Below the pieces are notes generated by a model, which was not told the DNA's origin, searched no databases, and saw nothing but the letters and a program-made list of their open reading frames with translations. Both the position numbers and the translations under genes were made by a program. Positions 8,215 to 31,017 of a DNA stretch of 32,000 nt are shown here, piece after piece. Every line of letters starts with the position of its first letter. Within the stretch, counting starts at the first letter, position 1. The stretch spans positions 3,030,001 to 3,062,000 of the forward strand of contig CP178758.1 in NCBI GenBank assembly GCA_047651235.1, given 5' to 3'. The DNA is from Candidatus Electrothrix yaqonensis (GTDB lineage: Bacteria > Desulfobacterota > Desulfobulbia > Desulfobulbales > Desulfobulbaceae).

Positions 8215-8706
8215 ACAGATGCAGGTGTTATAATTTGACATCAATAGGGGAGACAGACCACTATTGTAACTTATAGCCTTGTAGGGTGCCCTACCACACC
8301 ATTTTCGGTACGGAGGGCTAGCTTCAGCATTCATGCCCCGCGATAAATCACGGGGCTATTACGGCTCTCCCTCCGGGACAAGGAAGAAAGCCTGTCATAG
8401 AGGAACGCACCGAACTCATCATACCCCGTAGCTATTTTCTCTGTAAAAGATCATCCGTTTTGAACAGGCATCATCGGTAAAACAGAACAGCATAGCCTCC
8501 AGCTGCTTGTACAGGGGATTAAAGGTGCCTCTGCGCAGCAGGGGAGTTGTGCCCTTAGTTCCTCTGCACCTGCATCATCCTACGGTCACGGTCAATCTCT
8601 CCTTCCTTGGATTGGGAATGGGGAGAAACCAAGAATTGTATTGCAAGGGGAGCGTGAGAGTTGCCGGGGCAGGGGAGGCCCCCAGGAAAAAACGACAAAA
8701 AAAAGA

Positions 8707-8824
<118 letters not shown>

Positions 8825-8878
8825 TCGGTATATATAAATTAAATAGCAGGGTATGTATAACTTTATTTGAAAAGAATA

Positions 8879-8969
8879 TGGTTAAGCCGCACGGCTTATT
8901 AGTATCGGTTAGCTCCATGTGTTGCCACACTTCCACACCCGACCTATCAACGTTGTAGTCTCCAACGAG
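8879..8969 (-). rRNA. 23S rRNA, 3'-terminal ~90 nt only (truncated remnant)
   Basis: The reverse complement is CGTTGGAGACTACAACGTTGATAGGTCGGGTGTGGAAGTGTGGCAACACATGGAGCTAACCGATACTAATAAGCCGTGCGGCTTAACC. It aligns with the E. coli 23S 3' end (CGTTGAAGACGACGACGTTGATAGGCCGGGTGTGTAAGCGCAGCGATGCGTTGAGCTAACCGGTACTAATGAACCGTGAGGCTTAACC). The conserved upstream motif GCTGAAAGCATCTAAG is absent beyond 8969. Confidence 0.8.
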
Positions 8970-9031: not shown

Positions 9032-9314
9032 CTATTCCGCCTTTCCGCCCTGAGCTTCCAAATGATACCTTACCGTATCGTAAATATTTTTTGCAAAATC
9101 ATAAAATTGCTTCACCTGTTCCGAAGTCGGTCTGCCTTCGGGCAAAAAACCGAAAGCTCCGGGATAACGGGATTCAATATACAAACGCTTTCTCGACACA
9201 CTGCTGCGCATGAAAACTCGCAGCCCCGGTCGCAACTCCGCTCTGTAGCAGAGATTCGGCGGCGCATAGGTCTTCCTCGCACGCCTGAAGCCAAGCGGAG
9301 ACGGAGAGTTTCAT
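9032..9314 (-). pseudogene. HEPN-domain toxin partner of MNT, frameshifted and internally deleted
   Basis: The N-terminal piece (ATG 9314, overlapping the MNT stop as ATGA) translates MKLSVSAWLQACEEDLCAAESLLQSGVATGAASFHAQQCVEKAFVY then stops near 9174. The C-terminal piece is in another frame (track ORF 9032..9235), ..IESRYPGAFGFLPEGRPTSEQVKQFYDFAKNIYDTV. The total span of 95 codons is shorter than typical HEPN partners. Confidence 0.7.
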
Positions 9315-9712
9315 ATCAGAATTTTTCCTTTTTCCAGCACTTCTCTGGTGAATGAATTATCCGCTTGAACAAAATTATCCCATTCGCGCCTCGTATAGAC
9401 AATCAAGTCCATAGGAACCTTACGTTTTAAAAACTTGAAATATTTTTTCACAAAGGAATAATTTTCAATTCTTTCGTCAAAACTCCTCGGAACATCGTCT
9501 CTGTCCAGCACTACGATTAAATCTATATCGCTGTCGTCACCTACTTTTCCGTATGCATATGATCCGAACAGCACAGCTTTATACGGCTTCAGCTCGGTCA
9601 GAATATTTTTCAACTCAGTCAGGTAACTCTGTAGCATTTGCTTTTCCGCTTTCATATCAATATGCTTTACGCCTCCCTCAACGTCGCCTGCAATGAGATA
9701 ATGACAACTCAA
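9311..9712 (-). CDS. nucleotidyltransferase-domain protein (MNT-type antitoxin of MNT/HEPN modules)
   Basis: LFGSYAYGKVGDDSDIDLIVVLD is the GS-x9-D-x-D minimal nucleotidyltransferase motif. An alternative start is MKAEKQML at 9655. Confidence 0.85.
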   Translation of the reverse strand: MSCHYLIAGDVEGGVKHIDMKAEKQMLQSYLTELKNILTELKPYKAVLFGSYAYGKVGDDSDIDLIVVLDRDDVPRSFDERIENYSFVKKYFKFLKRKVPMDLIVYTRREWDNFVQADNSFTREVLEKGKILI

Positions 9713-9770
9713 CTCGTTCTGCTTAATTCTTTTTTAAAAGGACATTACTCCCTCTACCATCAATAAAGAT

Positions 9771-10046
9771 TCATGTCAAGAAAACAAAAGGTTGAGAAGT
9801 GCTGCCATCAAAATTTGCGAACCTCCAGCCCCTGGAAAAGATGTGCTCAAATCGAACGGTGCCGATGGCGGATGGGATGCGGCTACCAAACGGCCAGAGC
9901 GGAATTGATCCGGCGGTGGCATGGGTGCCCACCACTCTGATGGTCGGTCTGCGGTTGCGGGCAGTCAGAATACTCGGAAAAATGGTTGCAGCCAGTGTGG
10001 CTGCTCCGACCCGGCCGGTTTTCTTGAGAAAGGATCGACGGTTCAT
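9771..10046 (-). CDS. hypothetical ORF with a twin-arginine signal peptide, probably a gene fragment
   Basis: The N-terminus MNRRSFLKKTGRVGAATLAATIFPS is a Tat-type signal. The remaining ~50 aa have no recognisable domain and the ORF is short. Confidence 0.3.
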   Translation of the reverse strand: MNRRSFLKKTGRVGAATLAATIFPSILTARNRRPTIRVVGTHATAGSIPLWPFGSRIPSAIGTVRFEHIFSRGWRFANFDGSTSQPFVFLT

Positions 10047-10247
10047 ATCAACGGCATACTATTATCTGACTCTGACACAATCCGCAGAGGATGCGGATTG
10101 ATTACTCCGAGCCTCTACAGACAGGTTACCCTAATAATGCGGTGCAATTACAAACTGGCCTTTATGCGGCGAGCAGCCCCCCTCCCCTGCTCCGGTCATC
10201 AGCTTCTCCTGGACCTTCTTCTGAACCCGAAACGCGGACAGGCAACC

Positions 10248-10280
10248 AAAAAAGCCCCTACCGGATAACCCGGCAGGGGC
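10248..10280 (-). terminator. rho-independent terminator ending the mini-array transcript
   Basis: Minus strand reads GCCCCTGCCGG-GTTAT-CCGGTAGGGGC followed by TTTTTT. The single non-Watson-Crick position is a G-U pair only in the minus-strand RNA sense. Confidence 0.65.
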
Positions 10281-10388
10281 TTTAAAAAAAGAATCAGCAG
10301 CGACCTATTGGATAGTACAGGTGATCAATTCTTCCTGACCAGCTCTCCTGCCGACCCGTATCATCCGTTATCGCGGTGTCGGGGTACG

Positions 10389-10492
10389 GTCATAACCCAG
10401 GGCGCCCCGGAGTGTCATTGTGACATTATGACTCTGGCAAATGGTTCGGATTCACTGTCATAACCCAGGGCGCCCCGGAGTGTCATTGTGAC
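10389..10492 (-). CRISPR. mini-CRISPR array: 2 identical 36-nt repeats and one 32-nt spacer
   Basis: The repeat (minus sense) GTCACAATGACACTCCGGGGCGCCCTGGGTTATGAC lies at 10457-10492 and 10389-10424. The spacer AGTGAATCCGAACCATTTGCCAGAGTCATAAT lies at 10425-10456. The array is immediately downstream of a promoter-containing 40-bp leader. A third, degenerate repeat lies at 11942-11978 next to a RAMP/Cas6-like gene end. Confidence 0.6.
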
Positions 10493-10532
10493 CCTGCCTT
10501 TTTTTATACCCGTAAATTCAGTTCCCTGTCAA
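10493..10532 (-). promoter_or_regulatory. CRISPR leader-promoter, copy A
   Basis: Minus strand reads TTGACA (10532-10527), an 18-bp spacer, then TATAAA (10508-10503). The first repeat begins about 10 nt after the -10 box. It is 39/40 identical to 11979-12018. Confidence 0.55.
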
Positions 10533-10879
10533 TCCCTTTTTGTAGTACCTCCCCTCCGGAGCATGATTCTGACCCTGTTTTGCGGGAGGTCCTACACTGT
10601 GTTGGTTTTGGCGAATAACGACGCAGATTCAGCGCGATAAAATAACATTGAAAAATTAATTCAACTACCTGATTCAAAAGAATTTCTCCAGTTTCTTCTC
10701 TGAAATGACCCCATTTTCCCCTCTGACAGGCAAAAACGGCCCTGAATTGCCCGAAATTCGACCTACGTTTTTTTCAGAGTCATATTTTAACCCAGTATTC
10801 AACAAGCAGACCCATGTGTCTGCCCGGCGGACCGACCGGGTAATTCGGGGCGTTAATAGAGGCGACCGACCGGTTGCAT

Positions 10880-11137
10880 CTACAGCCTGTAAATTTCTTT
10901 GCGATGACCGACAGCGACAACCAGCACACTGATATTCCCGTCGTTTATTTCGTAGATCACTCGATATGAGCCAATTCGGATACGCCAAGCCGGACGACCA
11001 GACATTTTTTTGCTGCCCGCAGGACGCGGTTGTTTAGCAAGTGATGCGATAACAGTTATGATACGAGATTGGTCTTTCCGATCAATCTTGCGAAGCTGTT
11101 TCTGAGCAGAGCGCAGGATCTCAACAGAATATGTCAT
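10880..11137 (-). CDS. type II toxin, RelE/ParE superfamily
   Basis: 85 aa, MTYSVEILRSAQKQLRKIDRKDQSRIITVIASLAKQPRPAGSKKMSGRPAWRIRIGSYRVIYEINDGNISVLVVAVGHRKEIY. It shows the typical RelE/ParE layout and a 4-nt overlap with the upstream antitoxin. Confidence 0.85.
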   Translation of the reverse strand: MTYSVEILRSAQKQLRKIDRKDQSRIITVIASLAKQPRPAGSKKMSGRPAWRIRIGSYRVIYEINDGNISVLVVAVGHRKEIYRL

Positions 11138-11340
11138 GCATCATATTCCGCCTGAATTTCACGGATTGCCTGCTCAAAAGGGATACTTTTTTGTGACCCT
11201 GCTTTTGCCTTGTCATATGCACGGATATCATCAAGCTCTTCAAGCTCCGCAAGCACTTTCTCCCAGTCTGAAAAAGGCAGAAGCACTGCCTTTGGCTGTT
11301 TTTTACTGTCTATTACGTATTCCGGACGAATGGTAAGCAT
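11134..11340 (-). CDS. type II antitoxin (Phd/YefM-like)
   Basis: Start at ATG 11340 with GGAGGA 7 nt upstream. MLTIRPEYVIDSKKQPKAVLLPFSDWEKVLAELEELDDIRAYDKAKAG is a typical antitoxin N-terminal pattern. The track ORF 11134..11394 has a spurious N-terminal extension. Confidence 0.8.
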   Translation of the reverse strand: MLTIRPEYVIDSKKQPKAVLLPFSDWEKVLAELEELDDIRAYDKAKAGSQKSIPFEQAIREIQAEYDA

Positions 11341-11696
11341 AAAATGTTCCTCCATTGTTTCGGGGCACCTTGTCCAAGCCTGCCTTGGAACCACAAGGCA
11401 ATAAACTTACTTATACACGGAAGATCAGTATATAGCTGGAGCAGAACGATAACTTCACCTTCTGCGTCGGTTTCCGGTTCAAGCGAAAAAACAATCCGGC
11501 AATCGTAACCGCAGCTGCACGCCCGGAGTCCTTCAAGAATGCCGCTTAACTTATGCGTACCCAGTGATGCGGCAAAAATATCCTCCTGCATCTGCAGCAG
11601 GGTATTCTCAATGTGTTTCTGCAGCTTTGCATTACGCCGGACAAACTTACGAAAAGCCCGTTTGAACTTCGGGGTCAGAATCAGTTTTCGCCGCAT
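11313..11696 (-). pseudogene. RelE/YafQ-like mRNA-interferase toxin with a replaced C-terminus (probably inactivated)
   Basis: MRRKLILTPKFKRAFRKFVRRNAKLQKHIENTLLQMQEDIFAASLGTHKLSGILEGLRACSCGYDCRIVFSLEP...GEVIVLL is family-typical. After VIVLLQ the ORF runs through a solo MITE TIR (11431-11443) into unrelated sequence and overlaps the next antitoxin gene. Confidence 0.6.
11431..11443. repeat. solo copy of the MITE terminal inverted repeat (TATAGCTGGAGCA)
   Basis: An exact 13-nt match to the left ends of the MITE copies at 6279-6292 and 13306-13319. No adjacent MITE body is present. Confidence 0.5.
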
Positions 11697-11701
11697 GATT
11701 A

Positions 11702-11923
11702 TTAATCCGACGACGAGTCCTGAAGTTCCGCAATAACACTCTGTGCTGACCTGGCCTCAAATTGTCCGGCACGAAAATCTGCTAAAGATTTCCCGGTGTC
11801 ACGGGCAATTTCCTGACGGCGCGCTTCAATATGCCAACTGCGGATCAGATCGACGAGCATCTCCTGCTGTTCAATCGGAAATTTTCTGGCAATCTCGACT
11901 ACCTGCTCAAAAGTCATACTCAT
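11702..11923 (-). CDS. putative antitoxin of the RelE/YafQ-like toxin
   Basis: A 73-aa ORF ending 6 nt upstream of the toxin ATG. The RBS AAGGGGA lies 7 nt before ATG 11923. The protein is helical and charged (MSMTFEQVVEIARKFPIEQQEMLVDLIRSW...). Assignment is by position. Confidence 0.6.
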   Translation of the reverse strand: MSMTFEQVVEIARKFPIEQQEMLVDLIRSWHIEARRQEIARDTGKSLADFRAGQFEARSAQSVIAELQDSSSD

Positions 11924-11941
11924 AGAGACTGTCCCCTTTTA

Positions 11942-11978
11942 ATTATAACCCAGGGCCGCCCCGGAGTGTCATTGTGAC
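11942..11978 (-). CRISPR. solitary degenerate CRISPR repeat
   Basis: Minus sense GTCACAATGACACTCCGGGGCGGCCCTGGGTTATAAT. Compared with the array repeat it has one inserted C, and the last 3 nt change from GAC to AAT. Confidence 0.5.
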
Positions 11979-12018
11979 TCTGCCTTTTTTTATACCCGTA
12001 AATTCAGTTCCCTGTCAA
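11979..12018 (-). promoter_or_regulatory. CRISPR leader-promoter, copy B
   Basis: Same TTGACA-18 bp-TATAAA block as copy A. The TGA stop of the RAMP/Cas6-like fragment (12017-12015) is embedded in the -35 hexamer. Confidence 0.5.
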
Positions 12019-12191
12019 GCGACTTCTCTACATTTCTCCATATCGTGGACCAGTCTGTAATGTCCTAAACCGAAAGCACTGTGTCTGCCGTTATTAATCT
12101 CGGAACAGAGCAGGAGGAGCGGATAGACCGGCTCGATTTCGCCGCGCAGGTAGAGCGGCCCCACTGTGCCGTTCAGGTACTGTTTCCCCCT
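12015..12191 (-). pseudogene. C-terminal 58 aa of a RAMP/Cas6-like CRISPR-associated protein, 5'-truncated by the ISAs1 remnant
   Basis: Own translation gives RGKQYLNGTVGPLYLRGEIEPVYPLLLLCSEINNGRHSAFGLGHYRLVHDMEKCREVA. GRHSAFGLG fits the C-terminal glycine-rich loop (G-x5-G-h-G) of Cas6/RAMP proteins, and the gene ends at a CRISPR leader. There is no start codon; the frame hits a stop inside the IS end. Confidence 0.5.
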
Positions 12192-12944
12192 CAGGGCTGT
12201 TCAATTCTATAAGAGCTTGTATTTTCAAGACGTATGCAGTAATTGATACAGAAAAACTTTACACGAGGATTCTGCATGCTGTTTTTTTGCTGAACACAAT
12301 CAAAGATCATCGACGCGGGCAGGGCCGGCGATATGAGCTTACGCATATTCTTCTGTTTTCGATCATGGCGATCCTGAGCGGTTCGGATTCTTATCGCAAA
12401 AATCTGTTCGTTGATGCGCATCGTGAAAGGCTCAATGAATATTTCGGCCTGGACTGGAAAAAAGCTCCTGCATATACAACGATCCGCACTGTCATTCTGA
12501 ATACTTCCGGTTCGGAACTTGAGCGGATTTTCAGGGAGCACGGCAAAGCTCTCGCGGAAGAGGAACCGGACGGAGAATTTATTCATTGCGACGGCAAAAC
12601 TCTCCGGGGAAGTTTCGATAACATGAAGGATATTAATCAGCTTCAGATATTGAGTGCTTTTGCTGGCGACCGCGCCGTCGTTCTCGGCCATGAAGAAATC
12701 AGGGAGAAAAGCAATGAAATCCCGGCGGCGCGGAAACTGATGAAAGAACTCGGTTTATCCGACCGCATTTGACCGCTCCCGAATTCGTTGCAATCCGCAC
12801 ATATTTGCGAAACTGAGAAGCTTCGCTCTCAATATTCTTCGTAAGAACAAGGTGAAAAATGTCAGCCGGGAGCTTTTCAGGAACTGTATGGATATAAATC
12901 GTCTGTTTGATTACGCCGGGATTTTCTAGAATTGAACAGCCCTG
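12192..12944 (+). mobile_element. ISAs1-family insertion sequence, internally deleted derivative (753 bp)
   Basis: Perfect 18-bp inverted repeats CAGGGCTGTTCAATTCTA (12192-12209) and TAGAATTGAACAGCCCTG (12927-12944). The transposase N-terminus is at 12287-12772 (DHRRGQGRRYELTHILLFSIMAILSGSDSYR..). The C-terminal tail is in another frame at 12771-12929 (DRSRIRCNPHIFAKLRSFALNILRKN..). The DDE core is missing and no target-site duplication is seen. Confidence 0.8.
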
Positions 12945-13261
12945 CCGGTAGGGCTAGTTCACCCTATGTCAGCATCATCAACGGCACGATCACGGAACCG
13001 GAAATTCTGCGCATCCAGGCAGTGCTTGATCTGCGGGCAGATACGCTGATCTTCAGCCTGATCAATATGCACGAGGAAGGTACGGCAGGCCCGGCAGTGG
13101 CTGTCACTGCCAACGGCGGCTACACCCTGAACGGCTTTGCCGATTCTGCAGTCAGCAGTCTGGATATCCGGGTGGACAGCTATACTGCCCTAAAAGATAT
13201 GATACGCAACGACTACAGCGGCAGGCTGGTGGATATCCTGGATGTGAGGTTAGCCGGGTAA
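12932..13261 (+). CDS. hypothetical protein fragment (C-terminal part; upstream side cut by the IS)
   Basis: The coding-looking ORF ..ITEPEILRIQAVLDLRADTLIFSLINMHEEGTAGPAVAVTANGGYTLNGF...LVDILDVRLAG begins at the IS boundary. No family recognised. Confidence 0.35.
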   Translation: MNSPAGRASSPYVSIINGTITEPEILRIQAVLDLRADTLIFSLINMHEEGTAGPAVAVTANGGYTLNGFADSAVSSLDIRVDSYTALKDMIRNDYSGRLVDILDVRLAG

Positions 13262-13307
13262 GCTGCATCCAGGCAGCTCTATGGTTCATCAGACTGATTC
13301 CTCCGGT

Positions 13308-13414
13308 ATAGCTGGAGCAACATAATTTGAATATGCCCACAAGAGGCATAAGTTTTGCCTTCACGCCTTTCAGATAGCTGATCCTGTATTCAGTTTATAC
13401 TGCTCCAGCTATAT
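13308..13414. mobile_element. MITE-like element, copy 2 (107 bp)
   Basis: Same TIRs and TA flanks as copy 1, same orientation, identical except for the 8-bp duplication in copy 1. Confidence 0.6.
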
Positions 13415-13473
13415 CTGACAGTTGCCGGTTTTCAGGAGGTGTCTGTCAGATCAGATTCAAGCTACAAATAATC

Positions 13474-15474
13474 TCAATCGACTCTACAGGCTGGATTTAT
13501 GTGCTTATTCCTTAACCCCAACAAGGCAATCGTTCGATCATCATGATTACCGGGCGACCAGAAGGAAAGCCAGTCCAGAAGATTCTTTGCCGTTTCTCCC
13601 GGCGTGCCTGATAATTTTGGACGGATTTCTTCAGCCCAGAATCTGTCCCAGCGCTCAGGCTGCTGTAAATTATGATCCGTCTCAAAAATCGGATCCGTGA
13701 TACCGTCGGTCAGGAGAAACAGGGCGGTCATGGAATCCACGCAGGTAAAAGAGATCCGCCGCATAATATCTTCCCCGTCATTGGCCTCCGGATCGAGAAA
13801 ACGGGTCTGTCCGGCATATTCACCGCTGTCCGGCCGGCCCAGCAGCCTGACGTCTCCGTTTTCTCCCTCCTGCCCCTCCTGATACAGGGCTATGCCGCCA
13901 TCGCCGATCCAGTAACCGACAAGGAAATGGCGGCCCTGAATTTCCTTATGGGCAGCCAGCAGCAGGGTAGCGTAAAAATCCCGGAACCGGCACTGTTCTT
14001 TTTTGGCTTTCTGGTGAATGGTGTTGATGGCCTGATAAATCGCCTGGCTGAAGACAGAGTAGAGCACCTGCCGCAACTGCCCCTCTGTCCGGTCTGATTG
14101 TTCCTCATTCCAGGCCGACAGCGCATCAGCAAGGGCATCCTTCTGTTCAGTTAATTTTTCCGCAAGGACCGCTGTCGAGGTTCTGACGGCCAGCCTGGAA
14201 CCCTCTCTGGAATACTGACTGCTGCCTGCGCCGTCAGACACGGCCAGAATATGCCATTGGTCGGGATGTTCACTAAGCAGCATAAAATCGTCATCCCGGC
14301 ATTTGCCTTCGTGGGCATGGGATCGTCCCCGTTTACTGGCAGCAACCAGCCTCCAGATGCCGTGTCCAGCCCTTTCCTCAGCCGCTTCATCCGGTTTCCA
14401 GAACATCACACCTTGATCCGAGGGGATATCTTTCCACAAGGACTTGGGATCATGATTGACGACAAAATCGAAATGGCTCACTCCGCTGCCGCCGGAGCTC
14501 AGAATACAGGTCACCTTTACGCTGAATTCTCCGGGCGTGGAAGGCATTCCCTCGACGCGCTGCGTTTCCGGATCATAACAGATCCCTGTTGCTTCCAGTC
14601 CTTCAATTTTGGTGATTTTCAGGACCTCGCCGCCCGCAATAGACAGCTCTTCAGAATACGGGCTGTTGACCATTGCGTTGGGGAGTTTAAACTGCACAAT
14701 CGATGGATCAATATCTGGTTGCATGGTCGTGCTCTGCGGGGGGAGATGGATGCCAGGATCAGCGGAATGCGTTCCCTGTTCCTCCTGTTCCTGATTATTT
14801 TCCGGAATAGGCGGCGGCTCTGTTGCTTCAGGCGGCGATAGAGTATGCTGCGTAGCATCTTCCGGCACCGGCAGAGCAGTATCTGTCCCTTCCTCGGTCG
14901 CATCAATATCACCGCTTACAGCCTCCGGCGGCTCTGCGCAGTCAGTTCCTTCGACCTCTTCTTTCTGCTCTACCTTTTCAGCATGTTCTGTTTCCGCAGA
15001 TTCAGCAGGTTCCTCAACGGTTTCTTCGTTGATACTCAGGTCTTCCTGAGGCGGCATATCCGTTTCCTCGCTCTCCTGCGCAACCTGGTCATCGTCTACC
15101 AGAGCACTGTCATCGAGAGGGGGATCGTTTTTTTCTTCCGCATCATCTGTTTCCGCAGCTTCCACAGATAACTCTTCAGGAGCTTTCTCTTTGTTCGAGG
15201 TGTCCTGGGAGGACGCCGCCCTGTCCTCTGCTTCCTGAAAATCCGCCAGCAGCTCCTCCTCAATGCTTCTTTTGGCTGCAGAGATCACATTATCCTTTGG
15301 TGCAGTCCGATATTTTTTCCACATATACCAATGCTGCAGAAGTTCATCTGAAAAAGAGTTCAGTGCCTCAACAACGGCAGTGGTTTCCAGAAACTGGTCC
15401 AGCTCCTCCTCTGTCAGCGCCTGCCCGTTCAGGATGTTCCGGCAGGCGGCCCGTAACGAGGTGTGCTCTTTCAT
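13474..15474 (-). CDS. PP2C-family protein phosphatase with N-terminal helical region, ~170-aa acidic linker and an Ig-like (He_PIG-type) domain
   Basis: The C-terminal half WRLVAASKRGRSHAHEGKCRDDDFML...WHILAVSDGAGSSQYSREGSRLAV...YWIGDGGIALY...LLTDGITDP fits PP2C (PP2C_2-type) motifs. KLPNAMVNSPYSEELSIAGGEVLKITKIEGLEATGICYDPETQRVEGMPSTPGEFSVKVT fits the putative-Ig repeat. The start ATG overlaps the vWA stop (ATGA). Confidence 0.85.
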   Translation of the reverse strand: MKEHTSLRAACRNILNGQALTEEELDQFLETTAVVEALNSFSDELLQHWYMWKKYRTAPKDNVISAAKRSIEEELLADFQEAEDRAASSQDTSNKEKAPEELSVEAAETDDAEEKNDPPLDDSALVDDDQVAQESEETDMPPQEDLSINEETVEEPAESAETEHAEKVEQKEEVEGTDCAEPPEAVSGDIDATEEGTDTALPVPEDATQHTLSPPEATEPPPIPENNQEQEEQGTHSADPGIHLPPQSTTMQPDIDPSIVQFKLPNAMVNSPYSEELSIAGGEVLKITKIEGLEATGICYDPETQRVEGMPSTPGEFSVKVTCILSSGGSGVSHFDFVVNHDPKSLWKDIPSDQGVMFWKPDEAAEERAGHGIWRLVAASKRGRSHAHEGKCRDDDFMLLSEHPDQWHILAVSDGAGSSQYSREGSRLAVRTSTAVLAEKLTEQKDALADALSAWNEEQSDRTEGQLRQVLYSVFSQAIYQAINTIHQKAKKEQCRFRDFYATLLLAAHKEIQGRHFLVGYWIGDGGIALYQEGQEGENGDVRLLGRPDSGEYAGQTRFLDPEANDGEDIMRRISFTCVDSMTALFLLTDGITDPIFETDHNLQQPERWDRFWAEEIRPKLSGTPGETAKNLLDWLSFWSPGNHDDRTIALLGLRNKHINPACRVD

Positions 15475-16538
15475 CCTAAAGACCTCACAATATCGAATTG
15501 TTCATTGTTCTCCACCGGCACCAGAGTCAGTTGCTGCCTGCACCAGGGGCATTGGGCCGTGGTTGCGATCCCATCCACACAGAAGAGCCGACCGCAGGAA
15601 CACAGGGCCATTGCCGACGGATTGCCGCAGTACGGACAGCCTGCCTGTCCGAGGAGCTGCTGAAAATCGACCTTGGCCTCAATTTCGTTCACCACGGAGG
15701 ACCAGTCAAAATAGCTTTCATCCACCGGATAACAGCCGGTCATCCGGTAGCAGTATGCACCTGATCCTGTCCCTGCCTGTTGCGCTGAAAGCGCAACAGA
15801 GGCAAGCAGCACCCGCTCGTACTTGAGTAGATAGGGGGTTCCGCGCTGCTGGCAGCGGCCCGGAAAAATGGCAAAATCCTCATCCGAACCGGGATGTTCC
15901 GCAGCGGAGATCAACAGCTCGCCCGTCTTTTCCAGGGAGATGGGCAGATGCTGCTCGCCCTGCTGCTGCACCCTGACGCTCTGCGAGCGCACCGACATGG
16001 TCATCCAGTCAATAAAGCGGGAAAAATCCGCGCTGTCCTCGCCGTTATAGGTCAGTACATGATCGGCAAACTCCGATAAGGCTCCCGTGGCCGCATGGTT
16101 GCCCAGCCCGATGGCCACCAGCTGCGCCCGCCCGGCATATTTTTTCTTCCAAGTCTGCACAGCATCCCGGCAATCATCTGTGGGTTTGCCGTCAGTCATC
16201 AGATAAACAAGCGGCTTCCAGTCCCCTTTGCGCTCCGCTGTGGTGGGGTGGATCCGGGTATCGATTTCCTGCATCAGATGGGTCAATGCCTTGCCCAGGG
16301 CTGTGCCGGAACCCAACGGCAGCTTAGGCGGATAAAAAGTCGGCAGATCCACCAGCGGAACCAGGGTTTGTACCTTACCGGCAAAGGCGATGATGGATAG
16401 AAATACGGTCTCCAAGGCATGGGGGTCCCGGCGGAGTGTGGTGATGAGCTGATTCAATCCCTGTTCAAGAAATTGCAGCGGTTCGCCGACCATGGAGTCG
16501 GAGACATCAAGGACAAGAAATACAGGCAGACGGCGCAT
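15471..16538 (-). CDS. vWA-domain protein (TerY-like) with C-terminal Cys-rich zinc ribbon
   Basis: MRRLPVFLVLDVSDSMVGEPL (MIDAS DxSxS)...PLVYLMTDGKPTD is vWA/TerY-like. The C-terminus is CPYCGNPSAMALCSCGRLFCVDGIATTAQCPWC. The RBS GGAGAA lies before ATG 16538. Confidence 0.85.
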   Translation of the reverse strand: MRRLPVFLVLDVSDSMVGEPLQFLEQGLNQLITTLRRDPHALETVFLSIIAFAGKVQTLVPLVDLPTFYPPKLPLGSGTALGKALTHLMQEIDTRIHPTTAERKGDWKPLVYLMTDGKPTDDCRDAVQTWKKKYAGRAQLVAIGLGNHAATGALSEFADHVLTYNGEDSADFSRFIDWMTMSVRSQSVRVQQQGEQHLPISLEKTGELLISAAEHPGSDEDFAIFPGRCQQRGTPYLLKYERVLLASVALSAQQAGTGSGAYCYRMTGCYPVDESYFDWSSVVNEIEAKVDFQQLLGQAGCPYCGNPSAMALCSCGRLFCVDGIATTAQCPWCRQQLTLVPVENNEQFDIVRSLG

Positions 16539-26110: not shown

Positions 26111-27313
26111 ATGACAATTAATCTGGTCAATAATTTTCCACAGAAAACAATCCGGCTGCCCGAAAACCTGCTGCGGCAGCACACCGCCTTTCTGCTCCGG
26201 CGTATGGGTATGAGCGGCAGATCGGTGAGCATCGTGCTCATGGATGATGCGGCAATGGCGGAATATAATCAGCAGTACCGCTCCAAATCAGGGCCGACCA
26301 ACGTGCTTTCGTTTCCGGCAGCACAGAACTCTCCTGATCTGGTCGGGATCCCTGCGGAACTGACTGCGGATGAATTGGGCGATATTCTTATTTCGGTGGA
26401 TACAGCCCGAAAAGAGGCCAAAGAAAAACAGATCTCCCTGCAGCAGCGGCTTACTGAGCTGATCATCCACGGCCTGCTCCACCTTGCAGGATATGACCAT
26501 GAAGGGTCGGAACAGGAAGCCGAGGTTATGTTCAGCATGGAAAAAAAATTGTTCTGCTCACTTCAACATATCTATTCAGAGAGAAGAAAAATGCCGAAAC
26601 TTGCCATTAATGTTGATCATATTGCTACTATCCGGCAGGCCCGTGGAGGAGCGGAGCCTGATCCGGTTCTGGCTGCCGGAATCTGCGAACTTGCCGGAGC
26701 CAAAGGCATTGTCGTGCATCTGCGGGAAGACCGGCGCCATATCCAGGACCGGGACGTCCGTCTGCTCCGGCAGACCGTAAAAACCCGGTTAAATCTGGAG
26801 ATGGCCGCGACCAAGGAGATCATCGCCGTTGCCTTGGAGGTTGTGCCGAATATGGTCACTCTGGTACCGGAAAAGAGAAAAGAACTGACCACCGAAGGCG
26901 GCTTGGACATCATCAGCAATGCAAAAAAAATCAGAAAGACGATTGAAAAAATGAGCGGGGCCGGAATCCCTGTTTCTATTTTTATTGATCCGGATATTGA
27001 GCAGATCAAGGCGGCTCTGGATGCGGGCGCGATCTATGTGGAACTCCATACCGGCCGCTACTGCGATGCGGGAAATGAAAAGGAACGGGACAGAGAGTTT
27101 CATCTGATTGAGGTGGCAGCGGAATATGCCTTTGAAGCGGGTCTGCGGGTGAATGCCGGGCACGGCCTGGACTACCGGACCACCACCAGAATCGCGGCCC
27201 TGCCCGCCATTGAGGAACTGAGCATCGGTCATGCCGTAATTGCCCGGTCCGCCTTTGTCGGCCTGGATCAGGCGGTACGGGAAATGCAGGCCTGCATCGA
27301 CAGAGCAGGATGA
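26111..27313 (+). CDS. single continuous ORF encoding YbeY endoribonuclease (aa 1-~155) followed in frame by pyridoxine 5'-phosphate synthase PdxJ (from internal ATG 26591)
   Basis: The YbeY part has GPTNVLSFPA and ELIIHGLLHLAGYDHE. The PdxJ part has MPKLAINVDHIATIRQARGGAEPDPV...HLREDRRHIQDRD...VTLVPEKRKELTTEGGLD...ELHTGRY...VNAGHGL. No stop codon separates them. PdxJ may also initiate independently at 26591, where GAGAGAAG lies upstream. Confidence 0.85.
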   Translation: MTINLVNNFPQKTIRLPENLLRQHTAFLLRRMGMSGRSVSIVLMDDAAMAEYNQQYRSKSGPTNVLSFPAAQNSPDLVGIPAELTADELGDILISVDTARKEAKEKQISLQQRLTELIIHGLLHLAGYDHEGSEQEAEVMFSMEKKLFCSLQHIYSERRKMPKLAINVDHIATIRQARGGAEPDPVLAAGICELAGAKGIVVHLREDRRHIQDRDVRLLRQTVKTRLNLEMAATKEIIAVALEVVPNMVTLVPEKRKELTTEGGLDIISNAKKIRKTIEKMSGAGIPVSIFIDPDIEQIKAALDAGAIYVELHTGRYCDAGNEKERDREFHLIEVAAEYAFEAGLRVNAGHGLDYRTTTRIAALPAIEELSIGHAVIARSAFVGLDQAVREMQACIDRAG

Positions 27314-27888: not shown

Positions 27889-28668
27889 ATGCAAGAAAAG
27901 TTTTTACTTTACATTGACATACTTGGTTTTAGCGACCTTATCAAATCTGAGGAGCGGACAAAAGATCTGTACAAGATAATTGACTCACTCAATGTGCATA
28001 GCCATGATGTGTTTCAAACAATAGTATTTTCCGATACAATTTTGGTATATAACAAAGAAACGCATTCTGATGAAGATTCAGCAAAATACATCGTTTGGTA
28101 CGCTACTGAGTTTGCAGAAGATTTACACTTCAGGCTAATTGGTAAAGGCCTATATTTTCGGGCAGTGTTAACTTACGGTGAATTTGAGCATTATCATTTA
28201 AAAAACACGGAATGCTTTTTTGGAAAAGCCCTTGTCGATTCTTACAACAGTGAAAAGAACATTCAAACAACAGGGCTATTAATTGACAATGAGTGTCACA
28301 AATACTTGAGATTTTTTGCATCAGAAAAGTTTGACAATAACTGGCACTTTATCTATTTGGAACGTAGCTTCAAATATTTAGATGAAATGATGTTCGAGGG
28401 TTTACCCATTAGGCGTGAAGTGTTTATGGAAGGTGAAAATGTTCCATTTTTACTTGAAGCATTAGAATTCATTAAAGACATATACGGGAATATGCGTAAT
28501 CATCCTGTGCCAACTATTAGGACAAAATACCTCACAACATGGGATTTTTATCACCGAAAATATTCAGTAATTTTGGATTATTTGATAGGTAATAATTTCT
28601 CACCAGAGTCTGTATGTCCAAATTTTAATTGGGAGCCACTACTCAAAAGATTTGAGAATAAAACCTAA
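27889..28668 (+). CDS. cassette ORF 1: hypothetical protein with class III nucleotidyl-cyclase-like motif order in the N-terminal half
   Basis: FLLYIDILGFSDLI .. TIVFSDTILVY .. LYFRAVLTYGEF .. FFGKALVDSYNSEK parallels the cyclase homology domain blocks (vlFaDIvGFT / iGDavma.F / lRiGihtGpv / viG..VN.AaR). The Asn/Arg of the last block are not conserved. Motif-level inference only. Confidence 0.6.
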   Translation: MQEKFLLYIDILGFSDLIKSEERTKDLYKIIDSLNVHSHDVFQTIVFSDTILVYNKETHSDEDSAKYIVWYATEFAEDLHFRLIGKGLYFRAVLTYGEFEHYHLKNTECFFGKALVDSYNSEKNIQTTGLLIDNECHKYLRFFASEKFDNNWHFIYLERSFKYLDEMMFEGLPIRREVFMEGENVPFLLEALEFIKDIYGNMRNHPVPTIRTKYLTTWDFYHRKYSVILDYLIGNNFSPESVCPNFNWEPLLKRFENKT

Positions 28669-28671
28669 ATT

Positions 28672-28735
28672 GGTTAACCAGTCATTCCACTGGATTTCGC
28701 AAACTGCGCGAAACCCAGTGAATTCAACGTTATAA
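28672..28735 (+). other. attC recombination site 1 (64 bp)
   Basis: R'' is GGTTAAC and R' is GTTATAA. The arms CATTC[C]ACTGGATTTCGC / GCGAAACCCAGTGAATT pair with one extrahelical C. Confidence 0.65.
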
Positions 28736-28739
28736 GAAA

Positions 28740-29135
28740 ATGAAATACACGAAAAAAGAGATACGACTTTTCCGTACAATAAATCTCGTGGCGGTTGTAA
28801 TTGGATTGCTGATACTTCTGTTTTTGAGCAAAGCCGTCGGAATGGTCATCATTGGTTTATCGCTTTTCTTTTTGTTTCGACCATTTTCGGATGATGAGCG
28901 AGCTGAATTCTCAGATTTAGTCTCGGAATACAAAATCGTGAAGAAATATGAAGAAGGTCTACCTTGGGCGATTCTTCTCGTTCTTGAAGATGGAAGTGAA
29001 ACATGGAACAAAACGATACCGGGTAGTTTTTGCGCAAGAGACCCGGAAAATGACCTGACTTTCGTATTCTCAAGTGCGGAGGACGCACTCAGGCACGCAC
29101 AAGACATTTTTCCAAATGCGATTCATCGAAAATAA
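28740..29135 (+). CDS. cassette ORF 2: hypothetical protein with two N-terminal TM helices
   Basis: The 131-aa ORF has LVAVVIGLLILLFL and MVIIGLSLFFLF followed by a ~75-aa soluble tail. No family recognised. Confidence 0.6.
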   Translation: MKYTKKEIRLFRTINLVAVVIGLLILLFLSKAVGMVIIGLSLFFLFRPFSDDERAEFSDLVSEYKIVKKYEEGLPWAILLVLEDGSETWNKTIPGSFCARDPENDLTFVFSSAEDALRHAQDIFPNAIHRK

Positions 29136-29140
29136 ACTGA

Positions 29141-29198
29141 TTATAACGAATAAATGCTGCCGACTTCGCAAGCTCAGCGGCAGATTTTTGCGTTCCAA
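29141..29198 (+). other. attC recombination site 2 (58 bp)
   Basis: R'' TTATAAC is the exact complement of the preceding junction box GTTATAA. The arms AAAT[G]CTGCCG / CGGCAGATTT pair with an extrahelical G. R' is GTTCCAA. Confidence 0.65.
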
Positions 29199-29372
29199 AG
29201 GCGCGCCCCTTCGGGCCACGCCTTTGGAATGCCGAGTTGACCGTACCGGCCCAACATTTGATTCCTGCGGCGCTGCGCGCCTTCGGAACCAAACGTTGGA
29301 CTCGAAATTTTCCCGCAATAATCAACCGCAAGCGGCCATTATACCAGGAAAATTACGGTCAACTCGGCATTA
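29192..29372. repeat. 181-bp structured element, copy 2
   Basis: See copy 1. The single difference (A at 29355 versus C at 27832) falls on a position that is mismatched in the predicted helix. Confidence 0.85.
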
Positions 29373-29395
29373 TCAATACGAATGAGGAGGAATAA

Positions 29396-29731
29396 ATGTT
29401 AGTTGTTTTTAATACAGTTGGATTTCTATGGTTACTTGTTGCATTCGGGATCGCCATTGGCTTGCAAAGTGCTGGAATTATAATTGACAAAAAAGGTGAC
29501 TATTTCTTAGAAGTAATCGCTACTTCAATAATATTATTTGATTTCGCATTCAGGTTTTTGATTGGTAAGAATCGAAAATTGGAAGAAGAAGATGAATCAA
29601 AAAACGTTACAGAAGATGTATCAGGTCACTGGTTGATAGGTTCTAAGTTTGGAGGAAGTTTAATGTTCCTACCGACTTATATTGCAGCCATATTAGGATA
29701 TCTTTTTTTGGTATTTGTTGTAAAAGTATAG
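29396..29731 (+). CDS. cassette ORF 3: small membrane protein (3 TM)
   Basis: The 111-aa ORF has GAGGAGGA 5 nt upstream of the ATG. Hydrophobic segments are VGFLWLLVAFGIAIGL, VIATSIILFDFAFRFLI and LPTYIAAILGYLFLVFVV. Confidence 0.65.
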   Translation: MLVVFNTVGFLWLLVAFGIAIGLQSAGIIIDKKGDYFLEVIATSIILFDFAFRFLIGKNRKLEEEDESKNVTEDVSGHWLIGSKFGGSLMFLPTYIAAILGYLFLVFVVKV

Positions 29732-29746
29732 AGCAATAACAGTTGT

Positions 29747-29876
29747 TGATAACAATGCCCTTCCACCCGACCGGGCTTACGGCAAGGCTTTTTGAAAGGG
29801 TTACATTTAATAAATTATTTCTGCTTTTCAACCTGTTTTGGGTATTCCGCCCGTCGGGTGAAGGGCGGCGTTAGGC
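29747..29876 (+). other. attC recombination site 3 (130 bp, long type)
   Basis: R'' is TGATAAC and R' is the canonical GTTAGGC. The arms GCCCTTC[C]ACCCGAC / GTCGGGTGAAGGGC pair with one extrahelical C. Confidence 0.75.
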
Positions 29877-29882
29877 ATTCAG

Positions 29883-30581
29883 ATGAATCTATTAAAAACT
29901 TTCATATCTATGCTGGGCGTATTTACTGCGCTAATGTACTTTCATGGGTTGGCATTTTATGAAGGTTGGATGAGTTATTGGAATTTAGAGCCTGAACTAT
30001 TCCCTATATCACTCGAAGAAACTTTAGTTTATGGCTATCGGGCATACGGTCGCTTAAGTATATGGTTATTTTATATTTTAGGCTTGACCATTTCGATAAT
30101 CATTTTTTTTGCTATATTGCGATGGCTTAGGACAACCAAGATATTTGAAAAATTCACTGATAATTTAACTAGATTTTCAATATCTACTAGCATTAGAGAC
30201 TCAGTGTTATTTAAGGATAAAATAATCATATTTTTTGTAAAGTTTTTCGGAATATCGTTTCTTCTTCTAACTTGCATCTATACGATATTCTTTGTTTACC
30301 GAGAAGCGCAACTCCAAGGATACGATGCTGGATTTGATTACCATCACACATTAAGAAATATACAAAGAACAAATCCGTTGGCCATATATAAAACTAAAGA
30401 AGGTGAGTCATACGAAGGTACGGTTGTAACTTGTAGTGAGAAGTATTGTGCTCTGTTTGCATCAGGCAAGATTATCGTTTTAGCCCTATCTAGTATTGAT
30501 TTATCCACAAGAAAAGCACCTGACATTCTGAAAAGACGGCATACGAAACACAATCCGAGACGATTCATTTACTCGGATTGA
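29883..30581 (+). CDS. cassette ORF 4: membrane protein (about 4 TM) with a small C-terminal soluble domain
   Basis: A 232-aa ORF starting 7 nt after the cassette junction. No family recognised. Confidence 0.6.
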   Translation: MNLLKTFISMLGVFTALMYFHGLAFYEGWMSYWNLEPELFPISLEETLVYGYRAYGRLSIWLFYILGLTISIIIFFAILRWLRTTKIFEKFTDNLTRFSISTSIRDSVLFKDKIIIFFVKFFGISFLLLTCIYTIFFVYREAQLQGYDAGFDYHHTLRNIQRTNPLAIYKTKEGESYEGTVVTCSEKYCALFASGKIIVLALSSIDLSTRKAPDILKRRHTKHNPRRFIYSD

Positions 30582-30604
30582 CGGAATACGGATAATGGAA
30601 AGAT

Positions 30605-30662
30605 GCCTAACAAGTAAATCAAGCGGACGCGAAAAACTGTGCCGCTTATTAAAATGTTAGGT
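30605..30662 (+). other. attC recombination site 4 (58 bp)
   Basis: R'' GCCTAAC is the exact complement of the previous junction box GTTAGGC. The inner arms are AAGCGG / CCGCTT. R' is GTTAGGT. Confidence 0.75.
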
Positions 30663-30675
30663 GTAGTCACAGAGC

Positions 30676-31017
30676 ATGACAGAAGCAGATAAAGAAATTT
30701 TAGAGATTCTGAAAGAACTATTTCGTAATAAAGATAACGAACTTATCGATCCAGATGACCTTCTTAGAGAACAAATCGTAAAATGGACAATTTATTTTTC
30801 TATTTTTTCTGTTGTTACGCTGGTTCCTGCAAAAATATTTGGGCATGCAGGTAGCGATCTTATTAATGGGGTTCTATCAGGTGTAATTGGAGTGACATTC
30901 ACATTTCTCTTTGTTTATCTAAATATTAAATCGAAGAACCCAAGTTTTATATTGTACGTGTTAACTTGGTTATCAGCCGGGAAAGCTGCCCAAGCGGATT
31001 TTCCAGGAACACTTTAA
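30676..31017 (+). CDS. cassette ORF 5: small membrane protein (2-3 TM)
   Basis: The 113-aa ORF has WTIYFSIFSVVTLVPA and GVIGVTFTFLFVYL segments. No family recognised. Confidence 0.55.
   Translation: MTEADKEILEILKELFRNKDNELIDPDDLLREQIVKWTIYFSIFSVVTLVPAKIFGHAGSDLINGVLSGVIGVTFTFLFVYLNIKSKNPSFILYVLTWLSAGKAAQADFPGTL

Follow-up and report, generated by a model that had tools for sequence, protein, structure and literature searches.

Toxin-antitoxin operons behind CRISPR repeats in an apparently decayed locus of the cable bacterium Candidatus Electrothrix yaqonensis

A 32,000-nucleotide stretch of the Candidatus Electrothrix yaqonensis YB6 genome (contig CP178758.1, positions 3,030,001 to 3,062,000 of the forward strand; the window) contains at positions 10248-12018, on the minus strand, two copies of a CRISPR leader block, a one-spacer array, a solitary repeat and two toxin-antitoxin (TA) operons. 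The surroundings are ordinary chromosome, with hisS, RNase Y, 6S RNA, trpA and pdxJ; the PP2C and RNase Y proteins encoded here match XOF33156.1 and XOF33158.1 of YB6 exactly. An initial annotation described the locus as a duplicated leader-promoter, one copy feeding the small array and the other feeding the TA operons through the repeat. The best explanation of the whole, which we hold to be fairly probable, is a decayed multi-array type III CRISPR locus in which TA cassettes would be read from the leader block and outlast the arrays. The features are given below in the order in which the minus strand is read.

12964 to 13059, minus strand: sequence 'X', adjoining the insertion sequence (IS); the same 30-residue stretch ends another cas6 fragment, XOF33088.1.
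12192 to 12944, no strand assigned: IS of the ISAs1 family, internally deleted, 753 bp, with 21-bp terminal inverted repeats; it truncates cas6.
12015 to 12191, minus strand: cas6 remnant, the final 58 codons and TGA, recognized by tblastn with full-length Cas6 of relatives and by an alignment of eight family members.
11979 to 12018, minus strand: block B, the repeat-proximal leader block heading the cas6-adjacent array 1 (TTGACA, 18 nucleotides, TATAAA).
11942 to 11978, minus strand: solitary degenerate repeat, the sole remnant of array 1; 37 nucleotides, with one added G in the hairpin, GAC changed to AAT, and the end GTTATAAT.
11702 to 11923, minus strand: TA1 antitoxin, 73 amino acids; its ATG lies 18 nucleotides past the repeat and is preceded by AAGGGGA.
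11313 to 11696, minus strand: TA1 toxin of the YafQ/RelE family, damaged according to homologue alignments; open reading frame (ORF) of 127 amino acids.
11420 to 11444, minus strand: junction of the truncated TA1 cassette with the TA2 cassette; TA2-cassette homology begins at 11431 and YafQ homology ends there.
11134 to 11340, minus strand: TA2 antitoxin, RelB-like, 68 amino acids (Pfam RelB-like E 8e-6, PhdYeFM E 1e-4).
10880 to 11137, minus strand: TA2 toxin, ParE, 85 amino acids, apparently intact (Pfam ParE_toxin E 2.4e-14, full model length).
10533 to 10792, minus strand: extended leader of array 2; it shares about 80% identity with five array leaders in the metagenome-assembled genome (MAG) S24.Bin023 and with others.
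10493 to 10532, minus strand: block A, the repeat-proximal leader block heading array 2; 39/40 identical to block B.
10389 to 10492, minus strand: array 2, with a repeat at 10492-10457, a 32-nucleotide spacer at 10456-10425 and an identical repeat at 10424-10389.
10251 to 10283, minus strand: intrinsic terminator closing the unit, a 15-bp stem and a T run, 105 nucleotides past array 2.

The two 40-bp blocks lie where the initial annotation had placed them and are as alike as it stated; the stretch common to both copies extends into the repeat and amounts to 65 nucleotides at 97% identity. The -35 element TTGACA is perfect and the spacing of 18 nucleotides is as annotated. The -10 element is TATAAA, or TACAAA in the relative Ca. 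Electrothrix aestuarii, and the block was not called by a consensus promoter scan because this -10 element lacks the T at -7. The annotated succession of block A, repeat, spacer, repeat (36/32/36 nucleotides) and strong terminator was confirmed, and a terminator scan found no other convincing minus-strand terminator between 12018 and 10283. Both repeats of array 2 match the consensus of relatives, and 100 shuffles of the window gave 0 chance matches to them. Repeat and spacer lengths are those of a bona fide CRISPR array, for which direct repeats of 23-55 nucleotides and unique spacers of about equal length are expected, a single spacer being the minimum array size. The canonical repeat RNA folds into a 6-bp hairpin with a tail of 7 nucleotides. 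Behind block B, the degenerate repeat and the 18 nucleotides to the ATG at 11923 were found as described. This repeat still forms a hairpin (-12.3 kcal/mol) and its GTTATAAT end is of the terminal-repeat type. The slot between the two leader-and-repeat copies holds the TA genes, as had been proposed, and also the extended leader of about 260 nucleotides (10792-10533). Rfam gave no known RNA within 10248-12018.

The complementarity of the spacer end to the repeat-derived tag, also pointed out in the initial annotation, is there. The fold has -7.3 kcal/mol (z -2.4), 6 of 200 shuffles fold equally well, and among 55 unique spacers collected it is confined to the window spacer; we treat this panhandle as incidental. 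Alternatively, part of the repeat's 5' end may have been duplicated to give the spacer end: GTCATAAT is followed by GTCACAAT in the window, and GTCACAAGA is followed by GTCACAAT in the related locus L018. A stretch of 24 nucleotides of the spacer had no exact match in viral contigs, nor did the repeat core. Within the window the spacer has no second match at up to 3 mismatches, and its best partial match (17/22) lies in the leader and not in a TA promoter. The reverse, plus-strand orientation of the array, with the tail ATTGTGAC, was ruled out by the leader block, the direction of cas6 and the pyrimidine-rich spacers, all of which point to the minus strand.

The gene end before block B, annotated as Cas6-like, is Cas6. 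Positions 12191-12042 encode residues 207-256 of the protein with 84-88% identity to the Cas6 of relatives (tblastn, E 3e-22 to 5e-24). Pfam PF10040 matches the remnant weakly and below cutoff (E 0.002). The TGA occupies 12017-12015, inside the TTGACA of block B as had been noted, and the same overlap is seen in L010. The IS that cuts the gene has inverted repeats at 12192-12212 and 12924-12944 that are 95% complementary; no target-site duplication was read in its flanks. Its plus-strand ORF (12287-12772) matches NCBIfam transpos_ISAs1 (E 8e-24, model positions 1-139 of 314) and Pfam DDE_Tnp_1_assoc. Upstream of the IS, no similarity to the other half of cas6 was found within the window, and a 109-amino-acid plus-strand ORF there has no family match. 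The window contains no other cas gene.

The N-terminal part of Cas6 is retained in a separate protein of the same YB6 genome, 68 accession numbers away. XOF33088.1 (P0009) is a chimeric ORF of 198 amino acids that joins Cas6 residues 1-167 to a tail matching window positions 13059-12967; residues 168-198 agree with the window ORF at 12964-13113 in 30 of 31 positions. Sequence 'X' is therefore present at least twice in the genome, beside the IS and in the XOF33088.1 tail, and it marks an IS-associated rearrangement that split cas6. No YB6 protein was present among the intact Cas6 and Csx11 homologues, and functional cas genes as expected with a bona fide array were not found in YB6, by protein searches that miss unannotated pseudogenes and other CRISPR types. 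This stretch has probably lost its CRISPR function, and what remains is a promoter-plus-TA relic and a one-spacer array.

Two tandem type II TA operons do follow the solitary repeat, as annotated, and the toxin of the first is truncated by replacement of its C-terminus. The TA1 antitoxin has no Pfam or NCBIfam match. The TA1 toxin has 806 homologues, the best 120 of which (the identical self-match left aside) are 82-100 amino acids long (94-95 in nearly all cases) and align over 57-71% of the query. It is collinear with intact homologues to residue 85, and it is 81% identical to an intact 95-amino-acid YafQ-family toxin (P0012, pairwise alignment) through residue 85-90. The last 9-10 residues are replaced, with 42 unrelated codons in place of the C-terminal DIGTHDEVY, and the Pfam YafQ match ends at model position 73 of 88. 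The complete fold with its C-terminal catalytic residues is thus lacking. In Escherichia coli YafQ, a C-terminal His and Phe have a catalytic role. At the junction with TA2, the 15-mer CTGCTCCAGCTATAT (11430-11444) recurs at 13400-13414 in a palindrome. This palindrome (13302-13418) is a 117-bp element resembling a miniature inverted-repeat transposable element (MITE), with 32-nucleotide arms that are 81% complementary and carry the motif CTGCTCCAGCTATAT.

The TA2 genes overlap by 4 nucleotides (11137-11134), as in a type II TA operon. The RelB-like match of the antitoxin scores 26.0 bits against a cutoff of 27. Its gene is 90% identical in nucleotides to a copy behind a 3-repeat array in MAG L008, and a homologue lies 27 nucleotides past a solitary repeat in L018; the toxin gene is 93% identical in nucleotides to L008 2066-2326. 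No promoter was called by the scan in the region of about 90 nucleotides upstream of TA2. A hairpin of the repetitive extragenic palindrome (REP) kind directly follows the ParE stop in this cassette in three genomes (window 10793-10879).

Relatives of the locus were found by searching one genome of each species for the repeat core, by homologues of Cas6 and Cas10, and by a metagenome scan with a degenerate repeat pattern. The first gave only Ca. Electronema halotolerans (closed, 3.2 Mb) and one Desulfobulbaceae MAG. The exact repeat core found nothing in the metagenome scan; the degenerate pattern found six metagenome contigs. The 40-bp block stands directly before repeat 1 at no fewer than 17 (>=17) array heads in five other assemblies, and it takes the same position after cas6 in L006, L010, L011 and L012. 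TTGACA is invariant among the aligned leaders (15/15), conservation is strong for about 150 nucleotides further and weaker to about 300, and the leader is invariably on the block side, as expected of a CRISPR array. Arrays of 2 to 18 repeats adjoin cas genes in E. halotolerans, MAG S24.Bin023, L010-L012, L019 and E. aestuarii. Linked to the arrays are cas6 (PF10040), cas2, cas1 and the genes of a type III effector (Csx11, Cmr4-like and Cmr1-like proteins), and E. aestuarii encodes a fusion of Cas6, reverse transcriptase (RT) and Cas1. The intact arrays and cas operons for which the initial annotation had proposed a search occur in these relatives. Spacers are 29-38 nucleotides long, and the pooled unique spacers have 33% GC against about 50% in the genome and are pyrimidine-rich in the transcribed sense. 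This suits CRISPR RNAs (crRNAs) directed against foreign messenger RNAs and supports the minus-strand reading.

A dispersed repeat of the REP or MITE type, named in the initial annotation as the case that would undo its reading, was ruled out by the few sites in the closed E. halotolerans genome and by the linkage to cas genes, the repeat heading arrays beside cas6, cas2, cas1 and the type III effector. Repeat matches in that genome fall into six 8-kb blocks: the cas locus takes up three contiguous ones, mini-arrays with a leader another two, and a solitary repeat the last.

Several details of the related loci were recorded in passing. The E. halotolerans solitary repeat (L005 3785-3820, at about 2.36 Mb) is perfect, has no leader block and is far from the cas locus; it lies between nadA-like and methyltransferase-like genes, and its ATGAC overlaps a possible downstream start codon. 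The csx11 (Cas10-like) gene of E. halotolerans is split by a 381-amino-acid ORF (9491-10636) that looks like an IS transposase, in the region L006-L003 (concatenated coordinates 9073-13295). The type III effector of this closed genome may also be inactive. In L010 (5398-6335) and L019 (10038-10624) the repeat of the cas6-adjacent array begins GTCACACC rather than GTCACAAT, while the array upstream of cas2 on the same contig retains GTCACAAT. The hairpin also occurs as GGGACGTCC versus GGGGCGCCC, a variant in which both sides of a possible G-C pair change to A-U.

Gene order in these relatives bears on the origin of the two leaders. The intact locus of E. aestuarii (closed) consists of a leader with 4 repeats, cas2, cas6-RT-cas1, a leader with 7 repeats, a leader with 18 repeats and a cmr operon, and it has no TA genes in 22.9 kb. 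In E. halotolerans the order is cas6, block, 5 repeats, VapBC, leader, 3 repeats and cmr. L012 reads cas6, block, 1 repeat, VapBC, leader-block, 1 repeat, UPF0175/DUF3368, repeat and cmr. The window reads cas6 remnant, block B, 1 repeat, TA1, TA2, leader, block A and repeat-spacer-repeat. Between genomes only the TA content of the slot varies. These orders show copy B to be the head of the cas6-adjacent array 1 and copy A that of array 2; array 1 has collapsed to its terminal repeat and array 2 has come down to one spacer. The tandem leader-bearing arrays of the TA-free E. aestuarii, together with the shared order, show that the second leader is ancestral and that only the TA cassettes are inserts. 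By the same comparison, the leader duplication is unrelated to the TA genes, and the TA operons are later arrivals at the trailer end of array 1.

TA operons in this position are not confined to the window. Counting the window together with eight further assemblies, 15 junctions have a TA operon behind a repeat or what is left of one, and in all 15 the operon is co-oriented with the array. The gap between repeat and start codon is 17-43 nucleotides at 13 of them. It measures 18 nucleotides in the window, 37 in L014, 17 and 40 in L004, 43 in L006, 19 in L010, 27 in L018 and 24 in L022; L008 has gaps of 124 (34 to the start of cassette homology), 30 and 35, and L012 has gaps of 26, 28, 25-28 and 71. 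About nine TA families occupy these junctions: YafQ-type, RelB/ParE, a second RelB-like/ParE-like pair, MNT/HEPN, another ParE pair, a PIN pair, VapBC, BrnT/BrnA and UPF0175/DUF3368. Four cassettes are bracketed by repeats, two in L012 with full downstream repeats and two in L004 with partial ones. Array ends free of TA genes have instead a REP-like GTAGGGGC…GCCCCTAC hairpin or a terminator. TA operons after repeats are a recurring habit of the cable-bacterium lineage and apparently undescribed; literature searches found no description of repeat-abutting protein TA cassettes or of cable-bacterium CRISPR architecture, which fits the initial statement that the arrangement was new.

The TA1 operon has an orthologue among housekeeping genes in Ca. 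Electronema sp. PJ, where the orthologous 73-amino-acid gene precedes a YafQ toxin. A degenerate repeat lies upstream of it (alignment score 38, against a null of 18.3 ± 3.3 with a maximum of 30 in 2000 trials). TA plus a leftover repeat is therefore what survives array loss, and a lone repeat met beside a TA operon in a genome can be all that an array has left behind.

REP-like hairpins of the form GTAGGGGC(N)GCCCCTAC also stand after the last repeat of many arrays (L004, L006, L008, L009, L010, L012, L015, L020 and L023). They sometimes split a repeat and yield spurious ORFs such as VGARRAVPL. Past the terminator of the window (9311-10046, minus strand) lie a 91-amino-acid ORF with a weak twin-arginine signal match and a 133-amino-acid MntA-like nucleotidyltransferase. 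The latter has no intact HEPN partner before a 23S stub, and MNT/HEPN pairs follow arrays in four related loci; the window gene may be another decayed cassette.

The mechanism that we propose for the decayed locus runs as follows. Most cassettes, with 17-43 nucleotides before the start codon, would have no room for a promoter of their own, and the TA genes would be transcribed from the leader block through the repeat. In the window the transcript would run from 12018 through TA1, TA2, leader A and the mini-array to the terminator at 10251. Genes downstream of arrays can be taken to ride array transcription in this lineage: in E. aestuarii, 44 nucleotides separate the final repeat of array 0 from the start of cas2, and the block itself contains the cas6 stop. 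In genomes that retain Cas6, the enzyme would cleave the repeat 7-8 nucleotides before its end and free the TA message. Addictive cassettes would resist the repeat-to-repeat and leader-to-leader recombination that erases spacers, and they would accumulate, outlast the arrays and incidentally stabilize the locus. A working TA pair cannot be removed without cost, which would explain the enrichment and would give the locus its stability.

The initial suggestion that the degenerate repeat had itself become a promoter is possible and is not needed. The canonical repeat reads ATGACA-18-TATGAC and the window copy ATGACA-19-TATAAT; the solitary repeat of L012 (83-118) has C36 changed to T, giving ATGACA-18-TATGAT, the best promoter-like site of that locus. 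On the other side, terminal repeats of E. aestuarii without TA genes behind them also end GTTATATAC, and the AT-rich end therefore looks like ordinary terminal-repeat degeneracy.

Several points weigh against this account of a leader-driven, array-outlasting set of cassettes. That the block is a leader promoter, that it is active and that transcription reads through into the TA genes is what we infer from position and conservation, and its -10 element (TATAAA or TACAAA), without the conserved T at -7, went uncalled. The TA2 cassette brings about 90 nucleotides of its own palindrome-rich upstream sequence and may have its own promoter and operator. REP-like hairpins between some arrays and their downstream genes could stop transcription. 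The TA1 orthologue of Electronema sp. PJ evidently works without the block. The locus-stabilizing role is suggested by analogy, and the absence of Cas6 and Cas10 elsewhere in YB6 carries the limit of protein searches given above. The contigs used for comparison are mostly short and of metagenomic origin, and repeats can lead to mis-joins in such assemblies; the two closed genomes do show the same patterns.

The locus has some likeness to orphan arrays left after cas loss, with cas disrupted by an IS, arrays of 0-1 spacers and a degenerate terminal repeat. It differs in that the conserved leader block is kept and is positioned to drive two TA operons.

TA genes might also have piled up by coincidence in the dispensable trailers of a defence island rich in IS, REP and TA elements, with no link to the arrays. 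The region is indeed full of debris (the ISAs1 remnant, REP-like hairpins, the truncated toxin, a 23S fragment and the MntA-like gene). It is also a known tendency for TA pairs to border CRISPR-Cas modules, such as vapBC in Sulfolobales and at type III loci, for which roles in mobility or maintenance have been proposed (PMC6546367). We nevertheless find coincidence unlikely: random accumulation predicts neither co-orientation at 15 junctions nor starts 17-43 nucleotides past the repeat, and the intact E. aestuarii locus, TA-free over its 22.9 kb, shows that TA density near such loci is not uniformly high. To our knowledge, the literature on TA genes bordering modules describes adjacency at the level of gene neighbourhood, whereas here the operons abut the repeats themselves and some lie in spacer-like positions between repeats. 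The wider cable-bacterium pattern appears to be the known association of TA and CRISPR in a tighter form.

In Clostridioides difficile, type I TA modules are adjacent to CRISPR arrays, recurrently within the lineage, and they have been suggested to bear on the region's maintenance (PMC5961336). The likeness lies in TA modules beside arrays that recur in one lineage. The C. difficile modules have RNA antitoxins and promoters of their own and stand by type I-B arrays, often in prophages, whereas those described here are type II or VII protein TA systems, co-oriented, 17-43 nucleotides past a repeat, apparently promoter-less and associated with a type III system.

A bolder version of the mechanism, which we hold to be as doubtful as coincidence, is that CRISPR arrays double as an integron-like expression platform in cable bacteria. 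Promoter-less TA cassettes and cas2-cas6 would then occupy spacer-like slots, be transcribed from the leader and released by Cas6, perhaps after insertion by an RT-Cas1-Cas2 integrase, and would protect the arrays. The nearest functional parallel is with TA cassettes of integrons: chromosomal integrons such as the Vibrio superintegron carry promoter-less TA cassettes in a repeat-punctuated array behind an upstream promoter, and these cassettes are thought to protect the array. The cassettes described here are flanked by CRISPR repeats, and no integron integrase was found among the scanned ORFs of the window or the genes of the related loci; attI and attC are absent too.

Quite unlikely, in our view, is the second of the two readings offered initially, a guard of the CreTA kind. 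Here the TA operons would be wired to CRISPR so that a cell losing its cas genes would die, the toxin being set free once the effector or Cas6 processing is gone. CreTA and other CRISPR-supervised systems have been described (PMC9458426; bioRxiv 10.1101/2024.01.05.574328; 10.1101/2024.12.27.630466), and the likeness lies in solitary or degenerate repeats outside normal arrays, beside toxic or defence genes in or near cas loci. Promoter-less TA operons directly behind repeats, with start codons sometimes at the repeat edge, would suit such wiring; a Cas6 cut would set the 5' end of the antitoxin message; and in this genome the first toxin is disabled alongside the ruined cas6, which is what an obligatory loss of the toxin would predict. 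In CreTA and CRISIS, however, the pseudo-spacer of a crRNA-like RNA pairs with the promoter of a toxin or defence gene, which a DNA-binding effector represses. We looked for both hallmarks, a pseudo-spacer matching a toxin promoter and a Cascade-repressed toxin without a protein antitoxin, and found neither: no degenerate repeat with a pseudo-spacer matches a toxin promoter (the partial spacer match in the leader being the nearest), each toxin is an ordinary protein of type II or VII whose cognate antitoxin is also a protein, and the linked effector in relatives is type III and not a DNA-binding Cascade. Moreover, the TA2 ParE seems intact although cas6 is gone, and Electronema sp. PJ keeps an intact TA1 where no cas genes surround it.

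It is very unlikely that the operons are oversized spacers, inserted by a Cas1-Cas2 integrase of the RT-Cas1 lineage, possibly from messenger RNA, of which only addictive inserts survived. Four cassettes do have a repeat or a trace of one at either side, their untranslated flanks being short and promoter-less; all cassettes are in sense orientation, and Cas6-RT-Cas1 fusions are encoded in the lineage. At 0.5-1 kb the inserts are nevertheless far above the 29-38 nucleotides of the spacers, and the cassettes lie at the trailer although the leader is the expected end for integration. Several downstream repeats are incomplete or missing, arrays are also interrupted by REP elements and by genes other than TA, and poly-A or other signatures of complementary DNA are lacking.

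The other reading offered initially, Campbell-type integration of a circular TA element with its own leader and repeat, is most unlikely: the TA genes are flanked by the 65-nucleotide direct repeats, and leader-plus-mini-array units at four chromosomal sites of E. halotolerans, one by an IS5-type transposase gene, show that such units do move, yet E. aestuarii has adjacent arrays with their own leaders without any TA, the order of cas6, array 1 and array 2 recurs with other TA content in E. halotolerans and L012, and copy A has 260 nucleotides more of leader without counterpart in B, which abuts cas6 as it does in relatives, so that the copies do not come from one duplication.

Returning to the decayed locus with leader-read cassettes, TA genes near CRISPR-Cas are known and the reason is still argued; the link here is unusually tight and recurrent. 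It gives rise to the testable ideas that leader promoters express cargo other than crRNAs, that Cas6 processes messenger RNAs in nature, and that addiction modules stabilize arrays against repeat-mediated deletion, as has been proposed for integron cassette arrays.

Other parts of the window hold a few further features. About 1.4 kb from the CRISPR relic, on the minus strand (8705-8969), a complete 5S rRNA (8705-8821) follows only the last 75 nucleotides of a 23S rRNA (8895-8969, model positions 2834-2908). No other part of a 23S rRNA is in the window, and the arrangement looks like a broken rRNA operon, or a 5S gene orphaned together with a stub of 23S. At 13474-16538 (minus strand) a vWA/TerY-C protein of 355 amino acids overlaps a 666-amino-acid PP2C phosphatase with a long acidic N-terminal region. 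The pair resembles TerY-phosphorylation modules; no kinase gene was seen beside it. The stretch 27889-31017 (plus strand) has a low GC content of 35-41%, against about 52% elsewhere, and five consecutive ORFs of 111-259 amino acids without a Pfam family; it may be a foreign island. At 26111-27313 (plus strand), a YbeY endoribonuclease domain (residues 26-148) and a complete PdxJ domain (residues 163-396) share a single ORF of 400 amino acids.

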